A DNA stretch of 64,000 nucleotides from Octopus vulgaris. Lineage: Eukaryota. The position numbers and the translations under genes were made by a program. The DNA lies in assembly GCA_951406725.2 (NCBI GenBank), contig OX597823.1, positions 23,126,001 to 23,190,000 on the forward strand. The letters are read 5' to 3'. This document shows positions 24,580 to 64,000 of this stretch, piece after piece. Position 1 is the stretch's first letter. Every line of letters starts with the position of its first letter. The notes below the pieces were generated by a model that worked only from the letters and a program-made list of their open reading frames with translations, had not been told where the DNA came from and made no database searches.

Positions 24580-25494
<915 letters not shown>

Positions 25495-43292: not shown

Positions 43293-44585
43293 TACGAGGG
43301 ACGTTCAATAAGTAATGCCTCTAACCCACTTGTAGTTGGTTGATCTAGCTGAAATTTTGCATGTGCAATTATTTATATCTCAATAGATTAAGTGGCAAAT
43401 TACAGCTCTGAACTAATTGTGGTTTCTGATTTACAGGTGTTTGAACTCAGTCAAGTGTGAAATGGAGCCTGTTCAGTGTTGAGCAGTGATTCGGTTTTTG
43501 TATTTGAAAGGACGCACACCACGGGAGACTTTTGATGAAATGAAAGTAACTTATGGTGATGATACCCCATCATATGACCTTGTAAAACGCAGGCATCGTG
43601 AATTCAAGCATGGTCGGAACTCTGTGGAAACAGCTCCCAGATCTGGTCACCCCACTTCTGCCATTGATGAGGCATCTGTCCGTCAAGTTGAGGCTGCTAT
43701 TTTGGAAGATCGACGCATAACTATTTGCCAAATAGCCCATGAGGTCAAGATTAATACCGGGTCCGTGGAAACCATCATTCATGGACATTTGCATATCCAA
43801 AAGTTGTCTGCCAGATGGATTCCCAGGTTGCTCACACCTTTCCAGAAGCAAGAACGCGTTGAGTGCTCAAGGATGAATTTGGAGATGTGCCAAGAAGATG
43901 AGTCAAAATTTTTCAAGACTGATTACACAGGATGAAACCTGGGTCCATCACTATGATCCAGAGACAAAAAAGCCCAGTCAATGCAGTGGAAGCACCGTGA
44001 CTCACCTCCTCCAAAGAAGGCAAGGGTGCAGCCCTCCGCTGGCAAGGTCGTGCTCACAGTCTTCTAGGATCAGGGCGGAGTAGTGACGACAGAGTTCCTG
44101 GCAAGGGGCACCACAATTACAGGAGCCTATTATGCTTCACTTTTGAGGAATTTAAGAGAAGCTACCAAAATCAAGAGGCAGGGCAAGATCAGGAAAGGCA
44201 TCCTCCTCCTGCAGGACAACGCTCCGGTCCACGACTCATGTGTCACCAGATCAGAAGCACAGGCGTGCTGTTATGAACTCCTCCCCATCCCCCCTACTCT
44301 CCTGACCTTGCACCCTCTGATCTTCACCTCTTCCCAGCCATGAAGTTGTTTTTGAAAGGAAAGAGTTTCCCAGATGATGCAGCCTTGATTTCTGAAGTCA
44401 CGTTGTGATTGGAGGACCAAGCTGGGGTCTTCTACAAAAATGGTCTCCAGAGCTGCATCAAACGATGGGAAAATGCGTAACTCTGGGTGGTTCCTATATA
44501 GAAAAAGACTAATAACTGTGCCAAGTTCCGTTGCTCTACTGCTATGGGAAGTGGGTTACGGATTACTTATTGAACACCCCTCATA
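43293..44585 (+). mobile_element. Full-length (~1.3 kb) mariner element, inactivated transposase
   Basis: Imperfect TIRs TACGAGGGACGTTCAATAAGTAAT / ATTACTTATTGAACACCCCTCATA; WIPRLL, ITQDETWVHHYDPE, LLQDNAPVH and YSPDLAPSD motifs with frameshifts. Confidence 0.92.
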
Positions 44586-47073: not shown

Positions 47074-47183
47074 CAAGCTTCCTTTCAATGAGAGCATTGT
47101 CAGTCAATGGAATACGCCGTCCTTCTATTTTACCATATCCTCTTTTATAGACCAATTCACGAACACTCTTCAGGTTAGGGTAC
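47074..47183 (-). CDS. RPL7: RPL7 exon ([36 protein letters not shown])
   Basis: AG/GTAAGT boundaries; phases join both neighbours; conserved uL30 sequence. Confidence 0.95.
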
Positions 47184-47574: not shown

Positions 47575-48525
47575 TATGGGGTTGGCAAGAAAGTAATTTC
47601 CTTTTTGCAAATAAATAGTTACGATTTTTTTAAATGACTTTTGTCTAGGTTATGATTTTTTTCCTTCTGACATTTGAAAGCTGTTACTTCTAGCTTACTT
47701 CAGGCAAGAAAGCTGTTGAGGTTCACAAAGAAATATGTGAAGTTTATGGTGTTGATTGCTTAACAGAACGCACATGTTAGAAATGGTTTGAAAAATTCCG
47801 TTCCGGAGATTTATCATCGGAGATGACCAAATTAAAGCCATAATTGAATCCAACTGTCACATAACTGTGCGACAGCTTGCAGAGGTTAAATGCATCACAC
47901 ACAATTGAAAATCACTTAAAGTGCCTTGGACTTGTTGGGAAGCTTGATATTTGAGCTCCACATAAATTGAAAGAGATTCACTTATCACAACAAATCAATA
48001 TTTGTGATATGCAGCTCAAACGCAATGAAATCAACCTTATTTAGAAACAAATCATCACTGATTATGAAAAATGGATTGTCTATAATAACATCAATTCAAA
48101 ACGATCATTATCCAAGCGTAATGAACCAGCACAAACCACATTGAAAGCTGAATTGCATCAAAAAAACTTTTTTTTATTAAAAAGTCATGCTGTCAATTTG
48201 GTGGGATTACAAAAGTGCTGTGAATTTTGAGCTGCTTCCAAGGAACCAAACAATCAATTCAGATGTTTACTGTCAACAACTAATGGAACTGGAGGAAACA
48301 ATCAAAGAAAAACGGCCAGAATTAGCAAATCGTAAAGGAGCTAGACCAAACAGGTCTTTGCTAACTCGTAAAAAATTATTGGAGTTTGGCTGGGAAGTGA
48401 TGTCACATCCACCATATGGCCCTGACCTTGCACCATCAGATTACCATTTATTTCAAAGTTTTCAAAATTCTTTGAATGATAAAACTTTCAACAACAATGA
48501 TGACCTGAAATTGTACTTGATCAAA
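47575..48525 (+). mobile_element. Degenerate mariner element in an RPL7 intron
   Basis: KWIVYNN, MLSIWWDYK and HPPYGPDLAPSDYHLF motifs; deletions and frameshifts. Confidence 0.88.
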
Positions 48526-48685
48526 GCTAGAACACTATTCGCTTTTCCAAACTAACATTATCAAAACTACCCCAAGTTCCAATGTTACCAGTCTCTCTGA
48601 AACAACCAGCACTAGAAGTGCTCATGCTGAAATTAAAATGAAAATCACATCACACAAATGATAACATGCCAGGATGGCTGCTTAC

Positions 48686-48823
48686 CCCCAAGTGATATAA
48701 GGTTCGCAAATCTTGATCATCTGTAAAGTTGCTTTGTTCACTTTGACAAAGATACCATTGTTAATCTGTCTCAACCTAAACAACTGCATTACCTTTCTGG
48801 GTCGTGGATGGACTCCATTGATA
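48686..48823 (-). CDS. RPL7: RPL7 exon ([46 protein letters not shown])
   Basis: ttccAG / GTAAGC boundaries; L30 domain signature. Confidence 0.95.
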
Positions 48824-50246
48824 CTGGAAAATAGAAATATGCCCATTAGATAATGTACATGAAATGTAGGAAACTGAAATAGGAACATTACATTTCATGA
48901 AAGGTTGGGGTTATTAATAGTACTGTAAGGTAGCATTAACCCTTTCTAACACACCTTATGTGTTTCACTTAAATTCTAAAATAATCATGAATTTAGACTG
49001 GTTTCATAAAACAACTAGAACTTTTTTGCTTATCAATTCATTGATGTAATCTTTGAAACAATTTAACGAAATGTTCTTAACACAGTCAATTTACAATTTT
49101 TGTCTGAAAGCGAATTTCATTACAGGTAAATTCAACAAAATATAAAATTATTTGAATTTTGTTTGAAACATCAGCATAGAAAATGAGTTGTTGGCTAATA
49201 TTCAATGAGAATACAAAGAAAAAAATGATGCAAATTACTGGATTATTTATCAGTTAAGATTAATGTACCATAGAAGAAAACTAAATACTGGAATTTGTTT
49301 TTGAAGAAAACTAGGAAATGAAATACATCCTATCAACTATATGAAAAACTCACATGTATATATAAATACAGTGAAACATACAATAATGAACTAAAAGATA
49401 ATTGTAAGTGGTGGAGATACAAGTAAAATTCAATTTTTGCAGCCATCACATATGTTATTTACAGTTTATACTGAAAATTGCTTCTGCTGGATTCATAGAA
49501 CTTAAGATTACAAATGTTGAGCTAGTTCTGCATCAAGTGTATTGATTTATTCTTTAATACAGAAAGTGACTTTTCCTTACATCGTCATCATCCAACGTCT
49601 GCTGCCCATGCAAGCAAGCTGCACCAGACTCTAGTCTGATTTGGCATGGTTTTTATGGTTGGATGCTCTTCCAAACACCATTTTACAGATTGTGCCGAGT
49701 GCCTTTAGGTGGCACCAGCCTTGCAGGTCGACCTTCACTTAACAGTTCTGCTGTGGAGTACCGGTTTACTCAAGTACAGCAGGGTGCCAGGCACCTTGGA
49801 CTCCTGTCATCTCACCTGAAAGGTTCAGAGTCCTGAGATCATTCTTCAGTACTTCGTCCCTGGGCCTCCCACTTCCACACTTTACATCTACTTTGAAAAA
49901 TCGGCACTTCTTTATAGAGCTGTCAACAACCCTCGTCACATGATCAAACCAACAGTCTTCTCTCTTACACACAGCAACTAATTCCTATGCCTAACTTCTC
50001 TCTCAAAACATTAGCACTGTCAAACGTACACTTATGTTACAAATCCAGCAGAGCATACTAGCTCATTCCTTTCTAACCTTCACATGTCCTCTGCATTCAG
50101 GCCTCACGTCTCACAATCATGTAGAATGTAAACACTCATATACACCATATAGTTCTACAAAACCTCAGTCATCACCCAAAATCAAGAGAAAAAAATAATC
50201 TGTTACAATGAGTTAAGAATTTGAAACATTTTTTGTAGTAACATAC

Positions 50247-50413
50247 CCTCTAATTCTTATGACAAAAGCCAGTTTTGCACCACTGGGAACATAGTAGTTT
50301 CCAGCTCGGCGAGCTTCACGACGCAGCCTGATCTCTTCACGTGCCTGCATGCGATACTCTTTTACATATTTCTCAGCTCGGTGAAAGATTGTTATCTTCT
50401 TCTTCTTGAGTTT
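50247..50413 (-). CDS. RPL7: RPL7 exon ([21 protein letters not shown]...[19 protein letters not shown])
   Basis: ttcAG / GTATGT boundaries; conserved RAEKYVKEY and [10 protein letters not shown] motifs. Confidence 0.95.
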
Positions 50414-50817: not shown

Positions 50818-50920
50818 GGCTTTCTTCTGGAGAAGGTCAGCCTTTCGTTTGATAGCCTGAGCTTTCCTGGTTTTCCTTCTCTTCAATATACTTTCAGGTA
50901 CTTTGGGGATTTTTTTGTCA
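50818..50920 (-). CDS. RPL7: RPL7 exon (DKKIPKVPESILKRRKTRKAQAIKRKADLLQKKA)
   Basis: ttccAG / GTATGT; conserved N-terminal VPES.LK motif; begins in phase 2. Confidence 0.93.
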
Positions 50921-51052
50921 CTGGAAAGAAAAGTAATTTTCAGATAGAGAAAAAAAACTATATTCATGGAATTTAGAAATAACTTCATAAGAGCTTAAAT
51001 TATCAATACCAAAAGATGTAATAAGTCAATGAGAAAACAAAATCACACTTAC

Positions 51053-51073
51053 CCTCCAGCTTCTTTCCCAGCA
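51053..51073 (-). CDS. RPL7: RPL7 microexon, 21 nt (T GCT GGG AAA GAA GCT GGA GG; AGKEAG)
   Basis: aatttttcAG / GTAAGT; phase 2-2. Confidence 0.8.
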
Positions 51074-52504
51074 CTGAAAAATTTAAAAAGTACACATTGA
51101 AAACTTTCATGTTACTCAATATTTCAAATAAATTGATAATCATCTAAAATATGTTTAAACTGATGATAATCATCTAAAATATGTTTAAATAGAAAATATA
51201 TATCATCGTTTAATGTCCGCTTTCCATGCTAGCATGGGTTGGACGGTTCTACAGCTGGATGCCCTTCCTAATGCCAACCTCTCCGTGAGTGTAGTGGGTG
51301 CTTTTTACATGCCACCGGCACAGGTGCCAGACAAGGCTGGCAATGGCCACGATTAGATGGTGCTTTTTACATGCCACCATATATATATATATATATATAT
51401 ATTGCATATTATTTGGACTGTTTTTAAAAGCACAATAAAACACTCAGGATATTGTAAGTTGGCCTCATCAGCTAAACATAGATAACATAGATTAATAAGG
51501 TTTTAATGAAAGCTACAGGGTTAACTTTCCAGTTGTTTATAAAATTTGTGTGGCATGATCTTTACTCTTATGTGGTATATATTCATAATGCATGGTGCTC
51601 AGTATTATTTAACTAAAAAGTAAATATATCACATTCTTCAATGAACAAAATTTCTGCTTATGAATTTACTGTTGAAAATGTGTAGAATGTTATGAAGACA
51701 TATTTCAATTCTTCGATATTGCCAAAGTGTATGGACAGGGAAAAGGTTGAGCACAGAGTGATAGTGTGAGGCCTATTGGTTAAAGTACTGCACTCACAAA
51801 TGCAAAGTGGTGATTTCAATTCCTCAACTGGACAGGGCAAGGTGTCCTTGAGCAAAACATTCCACTTTGCTCCTGCCCGCACATCAGTAAATGAGTAACC
51901 CTACAACAGACTGGCATGCCAGTCAAGAGGAATCTTATGATCTCTTATATGCTACAAAAACTTGGTAACTAACCCAATGAGTCCTAGTACTTGAAACAGT
52001 AATGGTTGCACACAATAGTGTAGACAAGATATTCTAGTATCACCACTTTAACCATTTTAGCATTTAGATTACTCTCCCAAATTTATTGCTTACTTATGAA
52101 CAGTTTTGTTTTAATCATACATTATCTTGAAGCTATGAAATCTCACTGATGTGATTGTGTATTTTTAGAAAGATATAGTAGGGTAGGTGTGAGAGGCAGG
52201 ATCTAGCTAGTTTGAATACAAAACAGGTAGAATATTTGGCCAAATTAAATGCTAACGATTTAAGCTCTAGAGCATTAACAATTAAAAAATGGTTATCTAC
52301 ACAAACAAGACAATACCCGAGTCAATCAGAGGCCTCTACTAACAGCCCCAAATCCCTCAAACTCTACCCTACAGTTTTAAACAAGGACACATTGGATTAT
52401 ATAGTTCAAAGACGTCCTGAAAGGACAAGTTAGTCACTGCTGGAATGCTTTTGATGAATATGAATGGTGAGCTGGAATTAAAAATCTGATAAAATAATAC
52501 TCAC

Positions 52505-52525
52505 GCTCTTGCTTTCTTTAGAGCC
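52505..52525 (-). CDS. RPL7: RPL7 microexon, 21 nt (G GCT CTA AAG AAA GCA AGA GC; ALKKAR)
   Basis: ttttaatttttcAG / GTGAGTATTAT; phase 2-2. Confidence 0.8.
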
Positions 52526-53004
52526 CTGAAAAATTAAAATGACATCAGTCATATATTGACAAGCATTTCAACAAAGTAATTTTCAATATTACATAGCTAA
52601 TGTTTATATTAAATTAAGACGTATCTTCATAATCATCATTAACATTCATGTCTCTTTGCTTGCATGGATTAGACACATTCATTAAGACAGATTTTCTATG
52701 ATTGGATGCCACTTCCTAGCACCGACCCTCACCCATTTTCAAGTATGGTAATATTTCTCTATGGCCAGATAACACATTTTCAGATTGGGACGACAGATTA
52801 GTAAAGCTCGTTTACAACTAGGTTGATGTCAAGACAGAGACACAAGTACACATATGGCAGGTTGTTTGTTTTTAACTACCTAATTTCCTCATTAAGCTTT
52901 GATTGAACTGGGTTTACAAAAGACATCTGCCCAAGTGTCATGCCATGAGGCTGAACTGAAAATCATGTGGTTGGCAAGAACTTAACCACATAGTATTGCT
53001 TTAA

Positions 53005-54150
53005 TCTTTTCGTTACTATATTTCTGACCAAAATACACCTCTCATGAGTTTCAATTAAATTCTAAAACAATCATGAATTTAGACTTTTTTTACTTATCAA
53101 CATAGTGATATTTGGAACATAATTAAAGAAAGGGTTCTTAATCTTATTGCATAACTTTTGTCTCAAAGTGACTTTAATTACAGGTAAATCCAGGTAAACT
53201 GAGCAAAAGGTAAAAATATTAAAACATCACCATAGAAAATGAATCATCAGCTAACATTCAAATGGGTATGCAACAAAATTTTGATATAGAAGAATTGTGC
53301 ATATCACTAGATCATCAGTTGAATTTAATGCACAACAGAACAGGTGTACCATAAAGGTGAAACAAACTGAAATACTGGAATCTACCACAAGTTTGACCGA
53401 ACAAAAGAAATCGGTCAAAAAATAATGTACAGCCCTGGTTATGGTATGGAAGTGATAAATTCTAGACCACATCGTACCCAATGCTGACTAACATTATTTT
53501 CCCTGTATAAAAACTAAATCCACAGCAGTACCTAGTATTTGCTTCACAAATTTTCCAAACTTTGATCCCCCATTTTGTGTGTGTGTTTACATTCTGTGTA
53601 AGTTCGTTTCCGCAGTGATTGCTTCAAACAAGCATACTGAAAAAAATAAAAGTCTAATGGTTTCACTCCCTAAGAAAGACTACAGATAATCTCCTCAGAA
53701 AAATTGCTAATAAAAACATTTTTAAAGTTTTTACTTCATTCCGACGTAAAATCGTCTTTGCTGTCGCTATCGCCGTTTTGTTTCTTCAGAATTGCTGCTT
53801 TCGGTTTCAGATACAGAAATATCCATTCATTATTGTACACCATGTGCTTTTGTACCTCATTCATTCTTTTTCTCAATATCTCCCTATTTTCTGTTGAAAA
53901 AGCTTTAAATTCGGAATCAATGCTTGATAATATGAAACTCCTATCCATTTTCAAAGTTGAAGAAAAATCGATGCCAAAAATCTCCCAAAATTCACTGAGT
54001 TTAGATATCACGTCAAGCAATGTCGAAAACTATAACGCAACTATTTACCAAGTGAAATCACATATTTTCACAAATGTACTAATGAGATTTGTACTTAAAT
54101 CCACATTTAAATAACAATGGGTACTCTTGGCCAGGTTAGTAACGAATGGG
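53005..54150. mobile_element. Non-autonomous piggyBac-type element
   Basis: TTAA-TCTTTTCGTTAC ... GTAACGAATGGG-TTAA; internal sequence shared with 44998-45573 and 63528-64000. Confidence 0.75.
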
Positions 54151-54516
54151 TTAAATATTCAATAATTTTGTCATTTTTATAATATGCAAAACTTTTGTCA
54201 AGAAAATTATCGAATTCCACAAATGTACAGTCAGCCGTCACTTGCAAGCAAGTATGGCATAACAACATGTACTGTACTTTGATAATTATTTTCAGTACCT
54301 AGTCATGAGCTAACAGATCCCCCCTACATATCCAGGATATCAGTAGGAGGGAGAGAGAGCTGTTTCAGTAGCCTGTTAGTACCATTACAGCTGAGTAGAT
54401 TAGAGCAATCCAATGTCCAGTTCAAGAATTGAACCCCATGATTTTACAATGAGTCAAACATACAAAGACAATGAGCTTTCACATATTCAACTACATATGA
54501 ACAAAGTAATACTCAC

Positions 54517-54537
54517 ACTCTAGTTTTCCTGGTAACA
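54517..54537 (-). CDS. RPL7: RPL7 microexon, 21 nt (T GTT ACC AGG AAA ACT AGA GT; VTRKTR)
   Basis: ttttaatttttcAG / GTGAGTATT; phase 2-2. Confidence 0.78.
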
Positions 54538-55346
54538 CTGAAAAATTAAAACAGCATATTAAAGATCTATATTGATCAACATTTCAATTAAGTGATTTAC
54601 AATATTATATAAATATGAACACCATCTAAAGAATATATTGTCTTAAATTACTAAAATATACTGCTTTCATAATCATTTAATGCCTGTTTTCAATGCTAAC
54701 ATGGTTTAGATGGTTTGATTGAAAACTAGTAAGCCAGAGAGCTGCACCAGGTTCCAATCTGATTTAGCATTCCTTACACCATTGCTAAAACAATGATGAT
54801 AATGATTCAGTTTTATACATGTAGAGCAGTGGTTCCCAAAGTAGGTAGTATTGCACACACACTCCTGGGAGCAATGGAAAGTTCCAAGGGACTGTTGAAG
54901 ATAAGTGGGGCAAAATGGGGTTGCGATTCATGCCAAAACAACAAAATAATGGGTTCAAAGGTCAAGTTTTATTTGTGAAATACAGTTGCTTTGAATTTGT
55001 TTCAGAAAGAGTTCTATATTTGTGATGTTTAGTTAGGGTGGAGGTGCTAGGAATGTCACCTGGGTGTCAAGGGGGCAGCAACCTGAAAAAGTCTGGGAAC
55101 CACTGATGCAGAGCATGTGTAAGGTCTTACACCACTACATTCCTCTAAGAGACCACCTATCCTTATAGATGGTTGGTTGTCACTTATCCTATTAAGTTTA
55201 TTTGTAATTTCTTACTACCCATTACAGCTGAGTAGATCTGAGCAATGCACTGCCCAGTTCAAGCTTTAAACCCATGACTTTAGTCAAACATCCATAGATA
55301 ATGAGCTTTCACATATTCAACTACATATGAATAAGATAATACTCAC

Positions 55347-55367
55347 GGTGCAGCTTTCTTTGCAACA
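55347..55367 (-). CDS. RPL7: RPL7 microexon, 21 nt (T GTT GCA AAG AAA GCT GCA CC; VAKKAA)
   Basis: ttttaatttttcAG / GTGAGTATTAT; phase 2-2. Confidence 0.82.
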
Positions 55368-55438
55368 CTGAAAAATTAAAATAACAGCATATTAAACATT
55401 TATATTGATCAACATTTCAATTAAGTGATTTACAATAT

Positions 55439-55650
55439 ATTGGGATGGTGTATAATTATTGCAGCTTTTTTCCCCCGACAAAATTTATTCAACAAAAACA
55501 TCTTTAAATGATTATTCTGGAGCATATTCACCATCTACTTCAATTAATGCTCTCCATTTGCTTGGCAGACAGTCAGACCGTTATTTAAAGATGTATTTGT
55601 TGTATAAAATTTGTTGACAGTAAGCCACAATAATTATGCACCAACCTAAT
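55439..55650. mobile_element. mariner-derived MITE, present in only one copy of the duplicated intron unit
   Basis: TIRs ATTGGGATGGTGTATAATTATTG / CAATAATTATGCACCAACCTAAT; absent from the paralogous sites near 54600 and 56525. Confidence 0.75.
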
Positions 55651-56435
55651 CATCATCATCATCATCGTTTAACGTCCGCTTTCCATGCTAGCATGGGTTG
55701 GACGGTTCAACTGGTGTCTGGGGAGCCCGAAGGCTGCACCAGGCCGTAAATATGAAAACCATCTAAAGAATTTACTGTCTCAAATTACTAAAATACACTG
55801 CTTTCAATGCTGGCATGGGTTAGACAGTTTGACTGAAAACTAGTAAACCAAGGAGCCACACCACATTCCAATCAGACTGAGAATGGTTTCTACAGCTGGA
55901 TGCCCTTCCTTACACTCTTTTTAAAATGATGGATAATCATTATTCACCTTTATGCATGCAGTGCTTTGGTTCCCAAAGTCGACAACATTGCTCATTCCTC
56001 CCCCTGGGAGCGGTGGAAGATTCAAAGAAAGTGGGGCGATAATGGGTTGTGATTCATATAAAAACGACAGTTGCTTTGAATTTGCTTCAGAAAGCAGTCT
56101 ATGTTTGTGATGGTTAGTTAGGGTGGGGGTGCTAGGAATGTCGCCTGGGCGCCAAGGGGAAAGTAGTCCAAAAATGCATGGGAAACGCTGATGAAGAGCA
56201 TGTGTAAGGATTTACACCACTTCATTCCTCTAAGAGACCACCTATCCTTATAGGTGGTTGGTTGCCACTTATCCTATTAAGTTTTTCTAATTTCTTACTA
56301 CTCACTACAGCTGAGTGGATTTGAGCAATGCACTGCTCAGTTCAAGAATCAAACCTATGACTTTACAGTGAGTCAAACATCCATAGACAATGAGCTTTCA
56401 CATACTCAACTACATATGAATAAGATAATACTCAC

Positions 56436-56456
56436 GGTGCAGGTTTCTTTGCAACA
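56436..56456 (-). CDS. RPL7: RPL7 microexon, 21 nt (T GTT GCA AAG AAA CCT GCA CC; VAKKPA)
   Basis: ttttaatttttcAG / GTGAGTATTAT; phase 2-2. Confidence 0.82.
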
Positions 56457-56955
56457 CTGAAAAATTAAAATAACAGCATATTAATCATTTATATTGATTA
56501 ACATTTCAATTAAGTGACTTACAATATTATATAAATATGAAAAACATCTAAAGAATTTACTGTCTTAAATTACTAAAATATACTGCTTTCATAATCATCG
56601 TTTAATGTCTGGTTTCCAAGCTGGCATGGGTTAGACTGACTGAAAACTAGCAAGCCTAGTTCCAATCTGATTTAGCATGGTTTCTACAGCTGGATGCCCT
56701 TCCTTACACCATTGTTAAAACGATGATGTTGCCTTTAAACATGTAGAGCACGTGTAAGGTGTTATACCACTTCATTCCTCTAACCGACCACCTACTCTTA
56801 TAGGTGGTTGGTTATCACTTATCCTTTTAAGTTTATTTGTAATTTCTTTTCTTTATGCTTATCATTAAAACTTGGTATGTATCTGAATGTTACTGTTTAA
56901 TTTATCTCAACATAATTTTAATACAAAGTCTATATTGATTATAAAAAATACTTAC

Positions 56956-56976
56956 TCTTTAGCAGCCACCTTCTTC
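56956..56976 (-). CDS. RPL7: RPL7 microexon, 21 nt (G AAG AAG GTG GCT GCT AAA GA; KKVAAK)
   Basis: ttcttttcattttAG / GTAAGT; phase 2-2. Confidence 0.82.
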
Positions 56977-57995
56977 CTAAAATGAAAAGAAAAAAAAACA
57001 ATTATTTTAAAATTTAAGAGACGAAAATTCTAGTTAGCTTTAAATTCATTGCAATACAAGTCATTTCTAAACTATCCCTTTTCCTCAATAACTAAGAAAT
57101 TAACCATTACAAAATTAAATGAAAAATATTTAATCCTTTAGCAACCAACCAAAATATTTGACCCATTTTATATTCAAACTGACTAGATCCAACCTTTCCA
57201 ACATACCCCACAATGCCATTCTAAGAATAAAAAACTGTCACACCATTGAAATCTCAAAGCTATGAGATGATGCATGGTTAATACAAAGCAATATGATTAA
57301 AATAAGCATTACATTTTAACAATCCGAATGCTAATGGATTAAATCTCTGAAATTCTACTAGAATACTGAAAACACTTGTTTACAGTACCATAAACTAACC
57401 AGATTAACAGTTTGTATAACAAAATTTCAATGTAAATTTTATTAAATCATTGATCATTAGGTAAACGCTTATATATAATCTGACATAGATGTACCAAATC
57501 TTATGTTCTCTTGGAATTAGGCCATTTCTATAACATTCTACTCTTTTTTAAAAATTATACGAACTTCAGATTTAGGAGTAGCAAGTAAATTAGAAAGATT
57601 TCCAAAGGGAGTAGCTACAGAGAGACAAAGAACAAGTATAATCTACAGCAGAGTTTGAACAAAATGTGAATAGAATTTGCACAGCTATACTGAAAGCAAT
57701 AATGAATTGATTCTGGTAAGTAAACAGAGTGAAAATATTTTCCCTATTTTATATTTGTCCTGGTTAATATACATGGCAATATTTAAAATTTAAATCTCAT
57801 TGAAATTACATATAGCGTAGCTTGCAGAACCTGTCAGTTGTACTCCAAATATCACTTGAAAATAATAAACTTTGTTTTCTATGAAACTAACTTAGAAAAT
57901 TCATTAAAACACATTATAGTTAAAGTGTACTAATAAAACACGTAAAAACTTATATTGAATATTTTAATAAGTTTTATAAGCAAAATAATACTCAC

Positions 57996-58016
57996 TCTAC
58001 AGGTTTCTTTGCAACT
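57996..58016 (-). CDS. RPL7: RPL7 microexon, 21 nt (A GTT GCA AAG AAA CCT GTA GA; VAKKPV)
   Basis: aatttttcAG / GTGAGTATTAT; phase 2-2. Confidence 0.82.
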
Positions 58017-58512
58017 CTGAAAAATTTAAATTATATCATATGAAAAGTGGTTTTCAATATTCATAATATAGGCAAATTTAAATAAAAAGATTAATGCTTA
58101 AATAACTCAATATTAAAGTGTAGAGGTTTGATTATACTCAGAGAAGTGTATAAACTGATTTTCTGTTTTAGAATTATAGTTAGAAGCTGACTTTCTTCAC
58201 TTTTGTTAAGATGTTTCACAACAATAGATGTTCAATGCCCATTCAATTCAATCTATTGATACTGTTAATTCTTTTCATACTATGAAACACAATGTCTAGT
58301 TGTTTGCTGTTAATCAAAATCATTACAAACTTTATTACTATAACATTGTTTTAACACTTTCGATGATAAATTATAATAAAAAAAAAATTAAAAAAAGAAA
58401 AATACTTAGGAAGATTTTAGTTTGAAACACCAAGACTAACAAAAACAAGGCAGTTGCTTCTAATCATTTATATCTCCAACAAAATACATTACTTAATTAA
58501 CTTTATACTCAC

Positions 58513-58536
58513 GGCTTCTTTGCTACCTTCTTCTCC
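58513..58536 (-). CDS. RPL7: RPL7 microexon, 24 nt (G GAG AAG AAG GTA GCA AAG AAG CC; EKKVAKK)
   Basis: ccttatttttgtAG / GTGAGT; phase 2-2. Confidence 0.82.
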
Positions 58537-59227
58537 CTACAAAAATAAGGAGAAAAACGTTTAATTATCTACATTTTACTATTATGTGTTTAAAATAAAA
58601 CGGCTATACTGAAATATTCATCAGAAAGATTAGAAAGACAACAAAAGTCCCACGAAGTACATGGTTCAAAACTTCTGTTGAAAAATTATGGTTAGCATGA
58701 AAGCAACTCCAAAACACTAAGACAAAAAATAAATTTAAAAATCAGATTTCAAGTTATCTCTCTCATCTATATATGTATTCACCTCTTCAGCAAGACACTT
58801 GCCAATTTCATATCTCTCAGTATCATACCAAACGTAGTTGGCTGGTGCCACACACATACAAGCACCTAGCTAACTTTCAAGTGGCTGTCATTAGGAAGGG
58901 CATCCAGCTATAAAAAAGAGCATGCCACAGTAGACACTGGAGTTCAGTGCAGCCCTCTGGCCCATCAGTTCATGTTGAACCATACAACCCAAACAACATG
59001 GAGTATACAGTTCAACATGAACCAGACATCTATTACTGAAGAGATGGGACATGTTGAAATCGCGTGATCAGGCAGTTCCAGCATCCATAGCTGGGGATTC
59101 TTATCTGCCAGTACCATGCATGTGCTTATATGCACATTGCATCCACAGGAGGTCTTCGAGTTAGATAAAATGGAGTATTTGACACTAACAATATCCACAA
59201 TATGTTGGAAATAGATTGCATTTTTTT

Positions 59228-59266
<39 letters not shown>

Positions 59267-59464
59267 ATGCTAGCACGGAAAGTGGACTCTAAATGATGGT
59301 GATATATAGAGAGAGAGAAAGCAAGAGAGACACTGAGTGAATTAAGCAGACATGATGTAATAGTGAAACTGAAATGTCTGACAAAAGCAGTTCTGTCATG
59401 GACAGCATCTATGTCTGTTCCTATCTACTTATAACACATGACAAACCAAAGCATCACAATTTAA

Positions 59465-61443
59465 CCCTTTAGTGTTCAAGCCAGCCGTAACCAGCCAAAA
59501 TTAATTCCCCTTTATTTGTTCAAACTGGCTGTATCCGACCGCTCTACGAAATCGCTAAAAAAATAAACAAATCGCGTTATTAAATTCTCGTAGCTTTGAG
59601 ATAATGTGAGATGAAGCCTTTCCCCCTTTTATTTAAGTATAAATACTGTGAAATTGTTTAGACCACATGGTCATTTCCACGTTTTGAAGAGAAGTGTATA
59701 CGTTTGTTGTGAAAGAAATGGCGACAGCAAGTAGCGATTCCGACTTTGAAGGTTTTACTATTGATGATATTGAAAATATCAACGAAAAAAAAAGGACTTT
59801 GACTTTGGATTAATCTGATATTGATATCAGTGATTACTCGTCGGACGAAGAAGATTTTGATAATGAAAGTGATGAAAACGATATTGTAAACAAGGCAACA
59901 TGGTCGAAAATTACGACACCAATCACAATTTCTGATTTTACAGAAAACACTGGTCCACAACATAATTTACCTCCTGATGCTCAACCACTGGACTATCCAT
60001 TTTATTTTTGCCTCAAGGTTTTTTTGAAAATGTTGCGGAGGAAATGAACAAATATGCGCAACATTTAATTTCTGTTCGAGGAAGAAACGATCCGCTATGG
60101 CAGCCAACTAATACTGTGGAAATGAGAGCATTTTTCACAATTAATATTATGTTTGGAGTTAAACAGCTTCCTCGACTGTGGAACTATTGGAGTCTCGATG
60201 TAAGGTATGGCGACCCATATATTTCGAGCATCATGTCGAAGACGAGGTATTCGAAAATATCTCGGTATTTGCATTTAACTGATTCTGCCAATGCCCCCAA
60301 CAAAAACGACCCAAACTACAATCCCCTGTACAAAGTACGTCCCGTGATAGATTCACTTGTAAATAATTATAAAACTGTTTATTTACCTAGGAAAAATCTC
60401 AGTGTAGATGAAGCCATGATAGGCTATAAGGACAGAGTACATTTTCGGCAGTACATGCCTGCCAAACCTACTAAATGGGGGATCAAGGTATGGGAAGTTT
60501 GTGAATCAGACGGGATACTGTGTAAACTTCGTTGTTTACACAGGTAAGAAGTATAATGGGAAAAGACCGCATGGATTGGGACATGATGTTGTATGGTCCC
60601 TTACACAACCTTTTCACCATCAGCACCGACACCTCTATTTCGACCATTTTTTTTCTTCAGTGGCTTTGGCTGAAAATCTGGCCCATGTAAGCACTTACAT
60701 GTGCAGCACTGTTATGGGAAACCATAAAGGTTTACCCCATGAAATAAAAACAAAATTTAAAAAAAGAGGGGACATTTTGCAAATGCAAAAAGAAAATTTA
60801 TTAGTTACTGCATTTAAAGACAAAAGATTTTATTTCTGTCTTCTAACGAACAACCTGGTGTTGGTGCTGAGGAGAAACCCCTCGTGAATATTTGTTACAA
60901 CAAATATATGGGTGGGGTAGATAAATCCGACCAACATCGGGCATATTACCTAGTTGGTCGACCTGGGAAGAAATGGTGGAGGTACATTTTGTGGCTTTTA
61001 GTTAATTTAACTATAGTAGAAAAAGAGTAAAATCTTGTACCGATTACACCTGTATTTTAATTAATTAAAATAATGTACCTCATCTTGAAAAATGTAAAAT
61101 TGTTGGCCGTTGACATCCAGGATAATTTTAGCAGCAAATCAAACAGGTAAGATGTATTAAGAATATGAAGTTTAGTGTATATTCATAATGTTATTGTTTT
61201 TACACCTGTTAATTAAATTCACCTGCCCATAAAAGTCAAATTTAGTAAGAAAGATCAGCTAAAATTACGTAATTATAAACCACTGGCATATAAGCACCCA
61301 TTTACAAAGTTTCAAAGCTGTATGTAGAAAATTAACAAAGTTACAAGTAAATATTGTGGACACCCCACTTGAACTTGAATAAATCAAACTTAATGTGAAC
61401 AGATAAGCATTACATTTGACAAATTAATCTGAACACTAAAGGG
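59465..61443 (+). mobile_element. piggyBac DNA transposon with frameshifted transposase, in an RPL7 intron
   Basis: TTAA on both sides (59461-59464, 61444-61447); 14-bp TIR CCCTTTAGTGTTCA / TGAACACTAAAGGG. Transposase motifs LSVDEAM, YMPAKPTKWGIKVW, LYFDHFFSS and YNKYMGGVDKSDQ lie across several frames from ATG 59718. Confidence 0.93.
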
Positions 61444-61669
61444 TTAAATAAGCAACACTCATTTGCAATTTAGAAATTTCATAGTTTTTCACAGCAAGAA
61501 ACCCAATGAAACAGCATAAACAATTAAACCATACACCTATAAGCTCTCTCTGGTACGCAAATACTAAAGTTTGTTTAATGATTTAAAACTGTCAACAAAA
61601 CAATCAGTTGAGAAAGAAAATCATTTATATCTCCAACAAAATACATTGTTTAATTAACTTTATACTCAC

Positions 61670-61693
61670 GGCTTCTTTGCTACCTCTTTCTTC
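61670..61693 (-). CDS. RPL7: RPL7 microexon, 24 nt (G AAG AAA GAG GTA GCA AAG AAG CC; KKEVAKK)
   Basis: ttcttatttttatAG / GTGAGT; phase 2-2; paralog of the 58513 exon. Confidence 0.82.
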
Positions 61694-62435
61694 CTATAAA
61701 AATAAGAAAAAAAAACGTTTAATCATCTACATTTTACTATTATGAGTTTAAAATAAAACGGCTATACTGAAATATTCATCAGAAAGATTAGAAAGACAAC
61801 AAAAGTCCCACAAAGTACATGGTTCAAAACTTCTGTTGAAAAATTATGATTAGCATGAAAGCAACTCCAAAACACTGAGACAAAAAATAAATTTAAAAAT
61901 CAGATTTCAAGTTATCTCTCTCATATATATGTATTCACCTCTTCAGCAAGACACTTGCCAATTTCATATCCCTCAGTACCATACCAAACGTAGTTGACAG
62001 ATCCTGTCTTAAAGGTATTTGATGACCTCACCAGTGCTGGTGCCACACATACAAGCACCTAGCTAACTTTTAAGTGGCTGTCATTAGGAAGGGCATCCAG
62101 CTATAAAAAAGAGCATGCCACAGTAGACACTGGAGCTCAGTGCAGTCCTCTGGCCCATCAGTTCATGTTGAACCATACAACCCAAAACAACATGGAGTAT
62201 ACAGTTCAACATGAACCCGACATCTATTACTGAAGAGATGGGACATGTTGAAATCACGTGATCATGCAGTTCCAGCATCCATAGCTGGGGATTCTTATCT
62301 GCCAGTACCATGCATGTGCTTATATGCACATTGCATCCACAGGAGGTCTTCGAGTTAGATAAAATGGAGTATTTGGCACTAACAATATCCACAATAAGTT
62401 GGAAATAGATTGCATTTTTATATATATATATATAG

Positions 62436-62466
<31 letters not shown>

Positions 62467-62772
62467 AAGAGAGCAAGAGAGACACAGTGAATTAAGCAGA
62501 CATGATGTAATAGTGAAACTGAAATGTCTGACAAAAGCAATTCTGCCATAGACAGCATCTATTTCTGTTTCTATCTACTTATAACACATGACAACCAAAG
62601 CATCACAATTTAAACAGTGTGGTTCAAGAGCCACATATATAACTTTAACAGTGTCCAGAAATATTTTCTAGTGAATTATGATTGCATATTAAAATCATCT
62701 TTTAAAAAAATTAAGACAAATGGCTATCACTAAGAACTTGTTACACACAACAAAGGTGACAAAAATACTTAC

Positions 62773-62790
62773 TTCTCCACTTTCTTTGGC
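62773..62790 (-). CDS. RPL7: RPL7 microexon, 18 nt (G CCA AAG AAA GTG GAG AA; PKKVE)
   Basis: ttttcttcttttctAG / GTAAGT; phase 2-2. The ATG exon was not found and presumably lies beyond the window. Confidence 0.8.
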
Positions 62791-62967
62791 CTAGAAAAGA
62801 AGAAAATATTTTGTTTAGTTACATGATATATTTACAAACATGGGATTATTGTTAATGTATTTCATGTATCGATATGAAACTTTTTATTACCAGTAATACT
62901 TTATACTTTTAACTTTACTAAAGCCAATTTCCATTTACTCTTGCTGTTCTAATTGTCTTTTCCTTAA

Positions 62968-63188
62968 CCCTTTCGTTACCAACCCGGCTGAAACCAGCTC
63001 TGGCTCTTTAGTATAAATGTCTTGTTTTCATAAGTTTTGAATTAAAATCTTCCACCAAATCTTAGTCACAATTTATGTTCTTAACACTAGCTGAATGATA
63101 ACTAAGTTATTTTACTAAATTCTTTGTTATATTTAAAATAATTGGAAGAAACACAGAGCATCTCAAAATAAATACAGTAACGAAAGGG
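62968..63188. mobile_element. piggyBac-type MITE
   Basis: TTAA-CCCTTTCGTTAC ... GTAACGAAAGGG-TTAA. Confidence 0.85.
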
Positions 63189-63527
63189 TTAACAAGATTT
63201 TTTATATAATATCAATGTAGCAGTAGGACCAATATATAAAATATAAGGGGCTAAGGCAGTTTTGCACTTCTTGAAAAACACATTTAAAAAAAAAATTTTT
63301 CCCCGGATTCCTACATTTTAGATGTCAGAGATTTTTTGTTTCCTGTTTTAGATGACAGAGATTCCGAATATGCAAGAAACCACGTTTTCACAATTTTAAA
63401 TTCAATAAGCATATAGATATGTGTATGAAGATAGATAGATCTGTCTTCCTGGGGCTAAAAACAATAGTAGGACCACCACATTTAGTTGACAAATGTATTT
63501 TATGAATAAACGGACAAATGGAAGAAA

Positions 63528-64000
63528 TTGGTCAAAAATAATATACGACCCTGGTTATGGTATGGAAGTGATAAATTCCAGACTACATCGTTCCCTAGGC
63601 CATGCCAACTAACATTATTTTCCCTGTATAAAAACTAAATCTACCGCAGCACTCAGTATTTTGATTCACAAACTTTGATCCCCCATTTTGTGTTTGTTTA
63701 CAATCTGCCTGAATTTGTTTCCGCATTGATCGCTTCAAACAATAACTTCCAGACCACATCGTTCCCTAGGCCATACTGACTAACATTAGTCTCCCTGTAT
63801 AAAAACTAAATCCACACCAGTACCCAGTATTTTGCTCCACAAATTTTCCAAACTTTGAACCCCCATTTTGTGTATCTGTGTAATTTGTTTCCGAAGTGAT
63901 CGCTTCAAACAAGCATACTGAAAAAAATAAAAGTCGAATGGTTTCACTCCCTAAGAAAGACCATAGATAAACTCTATCTCCTCAGAAAAATTGCTAATAA
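63528..64000. mobile_element. Third copy of the same non-autonomous family, running off the window end
   Basis: Same internal block, with an internally duplicated subunit as in the 44998 copy. Confidence 0.7.

Follow-up and report, generated by a model that had tools for sequence, protein, structure and literature searches.

The ribosomal protein uL30 (RPL7) of Octopus vulgaris is encoded on the minus strand of a 64,000-nucleotide stretch of genomic DNA (the window; OX597823.1 positions 23126001-23190000, with exon coordinates below 64000 given in window numbering) and features, ahead of a conserved core, a lysine-rich N-terminal tail encoded by 13 microexons in its first coding intron. Eukaryotic uL30/RPL7 is the same protein as that of the octopus gene, and the octopus tail and its isoforms are already in databases. 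Rodent L7 carries basic N-terminal repeats and is represented in the Protein Data Bank (PDB) listing by a 270-residue chain only. The octopus array itself is apparently undescribed: literature searches, which covered few subscription journals, gave no description of this uL30 microexon array among the papers listed.

Insect L22 and L23a and mosquito S6 are likewise conserved ribosomal proteins with H1-like tails of lineage-specific occurrence (PMC1934995; PMC11764897). These are proteins other than uL30, and one repeat per exon is not described in the relevant passages of these two papers. Human RPS24 features microexons in a ribosomal protein gene and tissue-specific isoforms (PMC11162997); it has three microexons with shown regulation, whereas the octopus gene has 13 duplicated in-phase exons. 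Chicken BG genes encode a protein tail in 13-36 exons, each 21 nt (sometimes 24 nt) long, and show a degree of alternative splicing (PMC4046983). These exons specify the coiled-coil heptads in a membrane protein, whereas the octopus units are proline-containing, basic, predicted to be disordered and part of a housekeeping ribosomal protein. Troponin T features an N-terminal tail outside the conserved core; its variable region includes the seven avian P exons, and alternative exons, tandem repeats among them, determine the length and charge of the tail (PMC11016001). Unlike the basic tail of octopus uL30, this tail is acidic, muscle-specific and of shown developmental regulation. The schistosome micro-exon genes (MEGs) have 10-20 very short exons between long introns, as does the octopus array (bioRxiv 10.1101/2023.06.21.545858), but they are secreted, multi-gene and diversified by splicing of the central exons, whereas the octopus array belongs to one gene for an intracellular protein, the conserved core of which is conventional. 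With a basic, hydrophilic N-terminus and a uL30 core, the octopus gene is a uL30 member, neither H1 nor MEG. By analogy, the array is built like that of BG and could work like that of troponin T if regulation were shown.

The identification of the gene as RPL7, made from the letters alone in an earlier note on this DNA, is confirmed by a Pfam scan, in which Ribosomal_L30_N (PF08079, E 2.9e-23) is followed by Ribosomal_L30 (PF00327, E 7.1e-17), both above curated cut-offs. The core exon used as a query has a single match in the genome. A core tree of 33 rows, picked from named molluscs and a few outgroups, places the octopus protein among molluscan RPL7, and a PDB search gave 66 sequences at E <= 1e-30, with the RPL7-like-1 paralogue last of the best 60. 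The start exon, 13 microexons and five core exons make up 19 exons and 336 residues, and the splice product is identical at 336/336 residues to the annotated O. vulgaris uL30 (CAI9728784.1, here P0125). Further octopus uL30 records are XP_029640698-700.1, XP_036361705-708.1 and XP_052826945.1.

The array comprises 13 microexons (m1 to m13) of 18-24 nt, all multiples of three and all phase 2-2, which amount to 273 nt over 16,287 nt. The earlier note had placed here ten minus-strand exons (one of 18 nt, two of 24 nt and seven of 21 nt) with pyrimidine-rich AG acceptors and GTRAGT donors, all phase 2-2, and had joined them in frame to the first core exon. All ten were found as described, the acceptors reading YAG, and correspond to m4-m13; its count of "at least 10" rises to 13, with m1-m3 and a start exon of 11 coding nt lying past the window end (contig 23190758-23195738). 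Their absence from the list of open reading frames is expected, as the exons are only 18-24 nt long. A scan of the minus strand at 51000-62850 for YAG, 9-36 nt and GTRAGT that required 12 or more pyrimidines in 20 yielded 12 matches, 11 of them multiples of three: nine of the ten exons, an alternative acceptor inside m11 and a 30-nt match with a stop. The tenth exon, m7, falls slightly below the pyrimidine cut-off. In 200 dinucleotide shuffles, multiple-of-three matches averaged 0.49 with a maximum of 3, and the same scan returned two matches on the rest of the minus strand and five on the whole plus strand. The coding frame has a stop in none of the 13 microexons; the other two frames have stops in five and four of them. 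A 35-place pattern derived from these same exons (acceptor, 21-nt exon with a Lys-Lys pair, donor) has six matches in the 2.8-Gb genome, against two for the reversed control. All six lie within the RPL7 gene, so the units are not a dispersed repeat. GTRAGT donors are present on 13/13 microexons versus one of four core donors, a uniformity that fits selection for inclusion. The in-frame internal acceptor of m11 (54517-54528, minus strand) would yield a 12-nt exon; this form is not seen in five O. sinensis proteins.

Several neighboring units of the array lie in duplicate blocks that extend into the introns. The blocks of m5 and m6 are identical in 934/974 alignment columns (95.9%), those of m2 and m3 in 286/309 (92.6%), those of m10 and m11 in 197/223 (88.3%) and those of m9 and m10 in 659/747 (88.2%). 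Older kinship is retained in the exons with their 20-nt flanks, at 69-80% for m7 and m9-m13 and 71% for m1/m4. As read from these alignments, the array grew via repeated tandem duplication of exon-plus-intron blocks, and duplications of several ages are visible within one intron. No decayed extra copy was found at >=68% in 45000-72000 (numbering continued past the window end). With 1-8 differences per pair, the duplicate exons offer too few sites for an analysis of selection. A block copied within a phase-2 intron would spare the reading frame of the essential protein only where the length of its exon is divisible by three, and the copy would then be phase 2-2 automatically. Phase symmetry is thus expected from tandem growth and is by itself no sign of combinatorial splicing; the earlier note had taken it as one, and this part of its argument is not supported, as symmetry is a necessary outcome of tandem duplication within one intron.

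No match was obtained with Rfam at gathering thresholds in the window and locus L002, so no known snoRNA accounts for the intron duplications. Between m5 and m6 lies a transposon remnant with perfect terminal inverted repeats (TIRs) that contain TTAA and a transposase in two overlapping frames, which we take to be piggyBac-like. This remnant sits at the m5/m6 duplication junction, and at the other copy the corresponding edge looks like a degraded terminus of this transposon. As to the remnant being the cause of the m6 block duplication, only adjacency is observed. Two intronic stretches in different introns, 48949-49205 and 53035-53261, are 67% alike over 259 columns and have no Rfam match at gathering thresholds.

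The 13 microexons encode a 91-residue lysine-rich tail. The N-terminal 101 residues consist of 34% K, 21% A and 9% P and carry a net charge of +26. In the AlphaFold2 model, residues 1-100 are devoid of secondary structure, with a pLDDT of 39-47, and the long uL30 helix begins at residue 104. The designation histone-H1-like, as proposed in the earlier note, is apt for the basic, K/A/P-rich composition only: neither an H1 family nor the globular winged-helix domain of histone H1 has a Pfam match at E <= 1 in the four proteins scanned. PDB entry 9EHO, deposited with a preprint on an rRNA break in helix 88 (H88) of O. bimaculoides (PMC13321053), lists in chain F a 343-residue sequence, that of the O. 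sinensis X1 form, yet the preprint used O. bimaculoides, whose database protein has a different tail. The accessible main text of this preprint has no match for RPL7, uL30, extension or exon, and one text supplement has none for RPL7 or uL30.

Tails of this kind, varying in length, are present in further octopods and in their sister clade. O. bimaculoides features a tail of similar length that has a single 8-residue unit like m5/m6 but its own run of heptads, and Argonauta a shorter one, with an N-terminal stretch of 46 residues. Two JGI proteins, P0004 and P0127, carry K/A/P tails that differ from that of octopus; their contigs, of at most 961 and 1169 nt, are too short for introns, from which we infer that they are mRNAs of other coleoids. 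In the core tree, the two are sister to the octopods with 100/100 support. Among the 188 of 232 proteins with an initial Met and a locatable core motif, the N-terminal stretch has a median of 17 residues and reaches 39 in some insects. The seven longest (87-108 residues) are those of six octopus records and P0127, and the bivalve and gastropod proteins shown (P0007, P0182 and P0170) have 9-10 residues before the core motif. Seven-residue periodicity was rejected as proof of a shared exon structure because it is unspecific: the lag-7 peak of O. vulgaris (0.27), O. sinensis X1 (0.33) and O. bimaculoides (0.35) also occurs in an insect tail (0.34) and is missing in Argonauta and P0004. A metagenome scan with P0127 reduced 516 pattern matches to five loci of 51-71% identity, none close to P0127; L010 and L011 were translated. 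On L011:1-1141, a single contig that is possibly an assembly chimera, an open frame apparently fuses a putative histone-H1-like globular domain and a K/A/P stretch to a uL30 core. On L010:1-1028, likewise a single and possibly chimeric contig, the uL30 core is preceded in frame by a twice-repeated unrelated stretch.

Isoforms are annotated in O. sinensis, where seven RefSeq names stand for five distinct proteins of 322-343 residues, each with one mismatch to the O. vulgaris exons. The combinations are all 13 exons; all 13 with a second m2-type unit; loss of m6; loss of m6 with the extra unit; and loss of m4 and m5. Ten of the 13 exons are common to all five proteins, and the tail charge ranges from +21 in the shortest to +27 in the longest. 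The extra m2-type unit occurs in X1 and X4 and is missing from the O. vulgaris genome, which suggests that copy number may change quickly. In O. vulgaris, all 8192 exon subsets are open, each giving a distinct protein. The earlier claim that any subset can be skipped is therefore correct with respect to the frame (0/8192 subsets with a premature stop), but annotated skipping is limited to three of 13 exons. Combinatorial tuning of the tail, the larger proposal, finds no backing in the annotation: the variation touches these three exons and one extra duplicate, and the seven 3' exons are retained in 5/5 distinct proteins. No tail-less octopus uL30 was found among the top matches of the protein searches, and none of 7420 candidates for short tail protein fragments (30-183 residues) passed E <= 1e-8. 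Of 24 sequencing runs listed, 20 contain the last exon, none of them recorded as RNA, which is neutral with regard to inclusion.

The account we favor, with slightly better than even confidence, is that the first coding intron of RPL7/uL30 holds 13 duplication-born microexons, most of which are likely part of almost all mRNAs, and that these yield a single long lysine-rich tail, predicted to be disordered, with a likely non-specific rRNA contact. Survival of a duplicated block would require an exon that is divisible by three and fits the phase of the host intron; the array would then grow or shrink in steps of a single 6-8-residue unit, and no splicing function would be needed to explain its symmetry. 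Inclusion of the short exons is likely maintained by their near-consensus donors. Some of the newest units (around m2-m6) may be optional to a degree, or their number may vary from one animal to the next; either would change the tail by a unit or two with no regulated code involved. In the ribosome, the N-terminal helix of uL30 is located next to expansion segment ES7L, on the solvent side. Judged by its charge and by ribosome structures, the tail likely makes a loose, non-specific contact with solvent-side rRNA on the ribosome surface. Yeast tolerates the comparable tail of fly L23a, with slower growth (PMC1934995).

Several observations weigh against this account. The flanks of m8 are weakly similar to those of other units (best score 41; null 95th percentile 29). 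CAI9728784.1 was probably annotated from this same genome sequence and hence does not constitute independent support, and the O. sinensis RefSeq X isoforms are computed models. The low pLDDT of the tail is weak evidence for disorder, as few of the 53 aligned rows cover it. The m3-to-m6 junction of X6/X7, which reflects the joint loss of m4 and m5, is not accounted for by shared 3' ends, and some real skipping of m4 and m5 is plausible. The persistence of a K/A/P tail across octopods and their sister clade could also reflect a specific selected function.

A stricter version, which we deem rather unlikely, is a constitutive tail in which every exon of a haplotype is always included and the database isoforms arise because short reads map ambiguously among near-identical exons or because individuals differ in copy number. 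The members of each of the pairs m5/m6 and m2/m3 share 16 identical bases at their 3' ends, so most of the O. sinensis variants are possible short-read mapping artefacts; short overhangs cannot separate m5-to-m7 from m6-to-m7. X2/X3 and X6/X7 are each two names for one protein, and the second m2-type unit of X1/X4 has no unlisted near-copy at >=68% in O. vulgaris 45000-72000, as a copy-number difference would have it. However, a shared suffix does not account for X6/X7 lacking both m4 and m5, and the ambiguity argument is transferred from the genome of O. vulgaris to O. sinensis.

Regulated splicing in the manner of troponin T or RPS24, by which tissues or stages would pick subsets and ribosome tails would differ in length and charge, is unlikely. 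The 8192 open subsets with as many distinct proteins and the five proteins annotated in O. sinensis would provide the means for it, and human RPS24 shows tissue-specific microexon splicing of a ribosomal protein (PMC11162997). Yet merely three of the 13 exons are ever missing in the annotation, within a narrow span of charge, and the donors are uniformly strong. UGC upstream of the acceptor is an enhancer of neural (SRRM3/4-type) microexons; TGC is found near the acceptor of four of the 13 exons, three of which owe it to common ancestry, and is missing from all three annotated-optional ones. Even in troponin T, many alternative exons give rise to 13 mouse and 11 chicken detected fast isoforms (PMC11016001).

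It is very unlikely that the tail mainly binds chromatin or nucleolar partners outside the ribosome, as reported for the tails of fly L22 and L23a. The composition in K, A and P is like that of an H1 tail, the fly L23a tail binds PARP and fly L22 copurifies with histone H1 (cited in PMC1934995). However, there is no H1 domain, the analogy is compositional, and no cephalopod localization or partner data were found. It is hardly credible that the segments are pseudo-exons which arose as by-products of intron duplication and are bypassed by splicing of the ATG exon directly to the core: separately annotated O. sinensis proteins agree with one mismatch in 336, related tails occur in O. bimaculoides and Argonauta, the long-tailed P0004 and P0127 stem from contigs too short for introns, and all exons are open in the coding frame alone.

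The features of the locus are listed in Table 1. Elsewhere in the window, a two-pore potassium channel-like gene with a long exon at 24580-25494 (plus strand; PF07885, E 3e-22) lies on the strand opposite to RPL7. Mariner-type transposase fragments are found at 43483-43935 and 48181-48555, both on the plus strand (PF17906; PF01359), the latter within an RPL7 intron.

Table 1. Features of the O. vulgaris RPL7 locus in window numbering, or in contig numbering where indicated.
Feature	Position	Strand	Remarks
Probable pyrimidine-led non-coding first exon	contig about 23196109-23196140	-	start inferred
Start exon	contig 23195722-23195738	-	ATG at 23195732, 11 coding nt, ends phase 2
m1	contig 23193322-23193339	-	18 nt, residues 5-10 of P0125
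m2	contig 23191407-23191427	-	21 nt, residues 11-17; duplicate pair with m3
m3	contig 23190758-23190778	-	21 nt, residues 18-24
Intron running off window end	62791..64000	-	
m4	62773..62790	-	18 nt, residues 25-30; absent with m5 from O. sinensis X6/X7
m5	61670..61693	-	24 nt, residues 31-38; in ~1 kb block 95.9% identical to m6 block
DNA transposon remnant	59459..61449	.	20-nt perfect TIRs, PF13843; adjoins 5' edge of m6 block
m6	58513..58536	-	24 nt, residues 39-46; absent from O. sinensis X4 and X5
m7	57996..58016	-	21 nt, residues 47-53
m8	56956..56976	-	21 nt, residues 54-60
m9	56436..56456	-	21 nt, residues 61-67; duplicate family m9/m10/m11
m10	55347..55367	-	21 nt, residues 68-74
m11	54517..54537	-	21 nt, residues 75-81; possible in-frame internal acceptor (12-nt form)
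m12	52505..52525	-	21 nt, residues 82-88
m13	51053..51073	-	21 nt, residues 89-95
First conserved uL30 core exon	50818..50920	-	103 nt, phase 2-0
Core exon	50247..50413	-	167 nt
Core exon	48686..48823	-	138 nt
Core exon	47074..47183	-	110 nt
Last coding exon with stop codon	45721..45928	-	

Ribosomal proteins with basic tails have precedents, and so do tails with one repeat per exon; no core ribosomal protein that combines the two was found in the literature searched. The gene illustrates how a disordered tail can lengthen and shorten by single peptide units. Even if inclusion is constitutive, it would clearly exemplify the splicing of 13 exons of 18-24 nt in a row, in a likely very abundant mRNA. 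That tissues—most interestingly neurons—choose subsets of the uL30 microexons, making the length and charge of a tail on the 60S subunit regulated exon by exon, is improbable in our estimate. If true, octopus ribosomes would have, in addition to the H88 rRNA break, a second innovation in this regulated tail. Octopus translation is about 30% slower than that of squid or slug, independent of this break (PMC13321053), and a regulated tail might, as a matter of speculation, be a contributor to the slower translation that the H88 break leaves unexplained.

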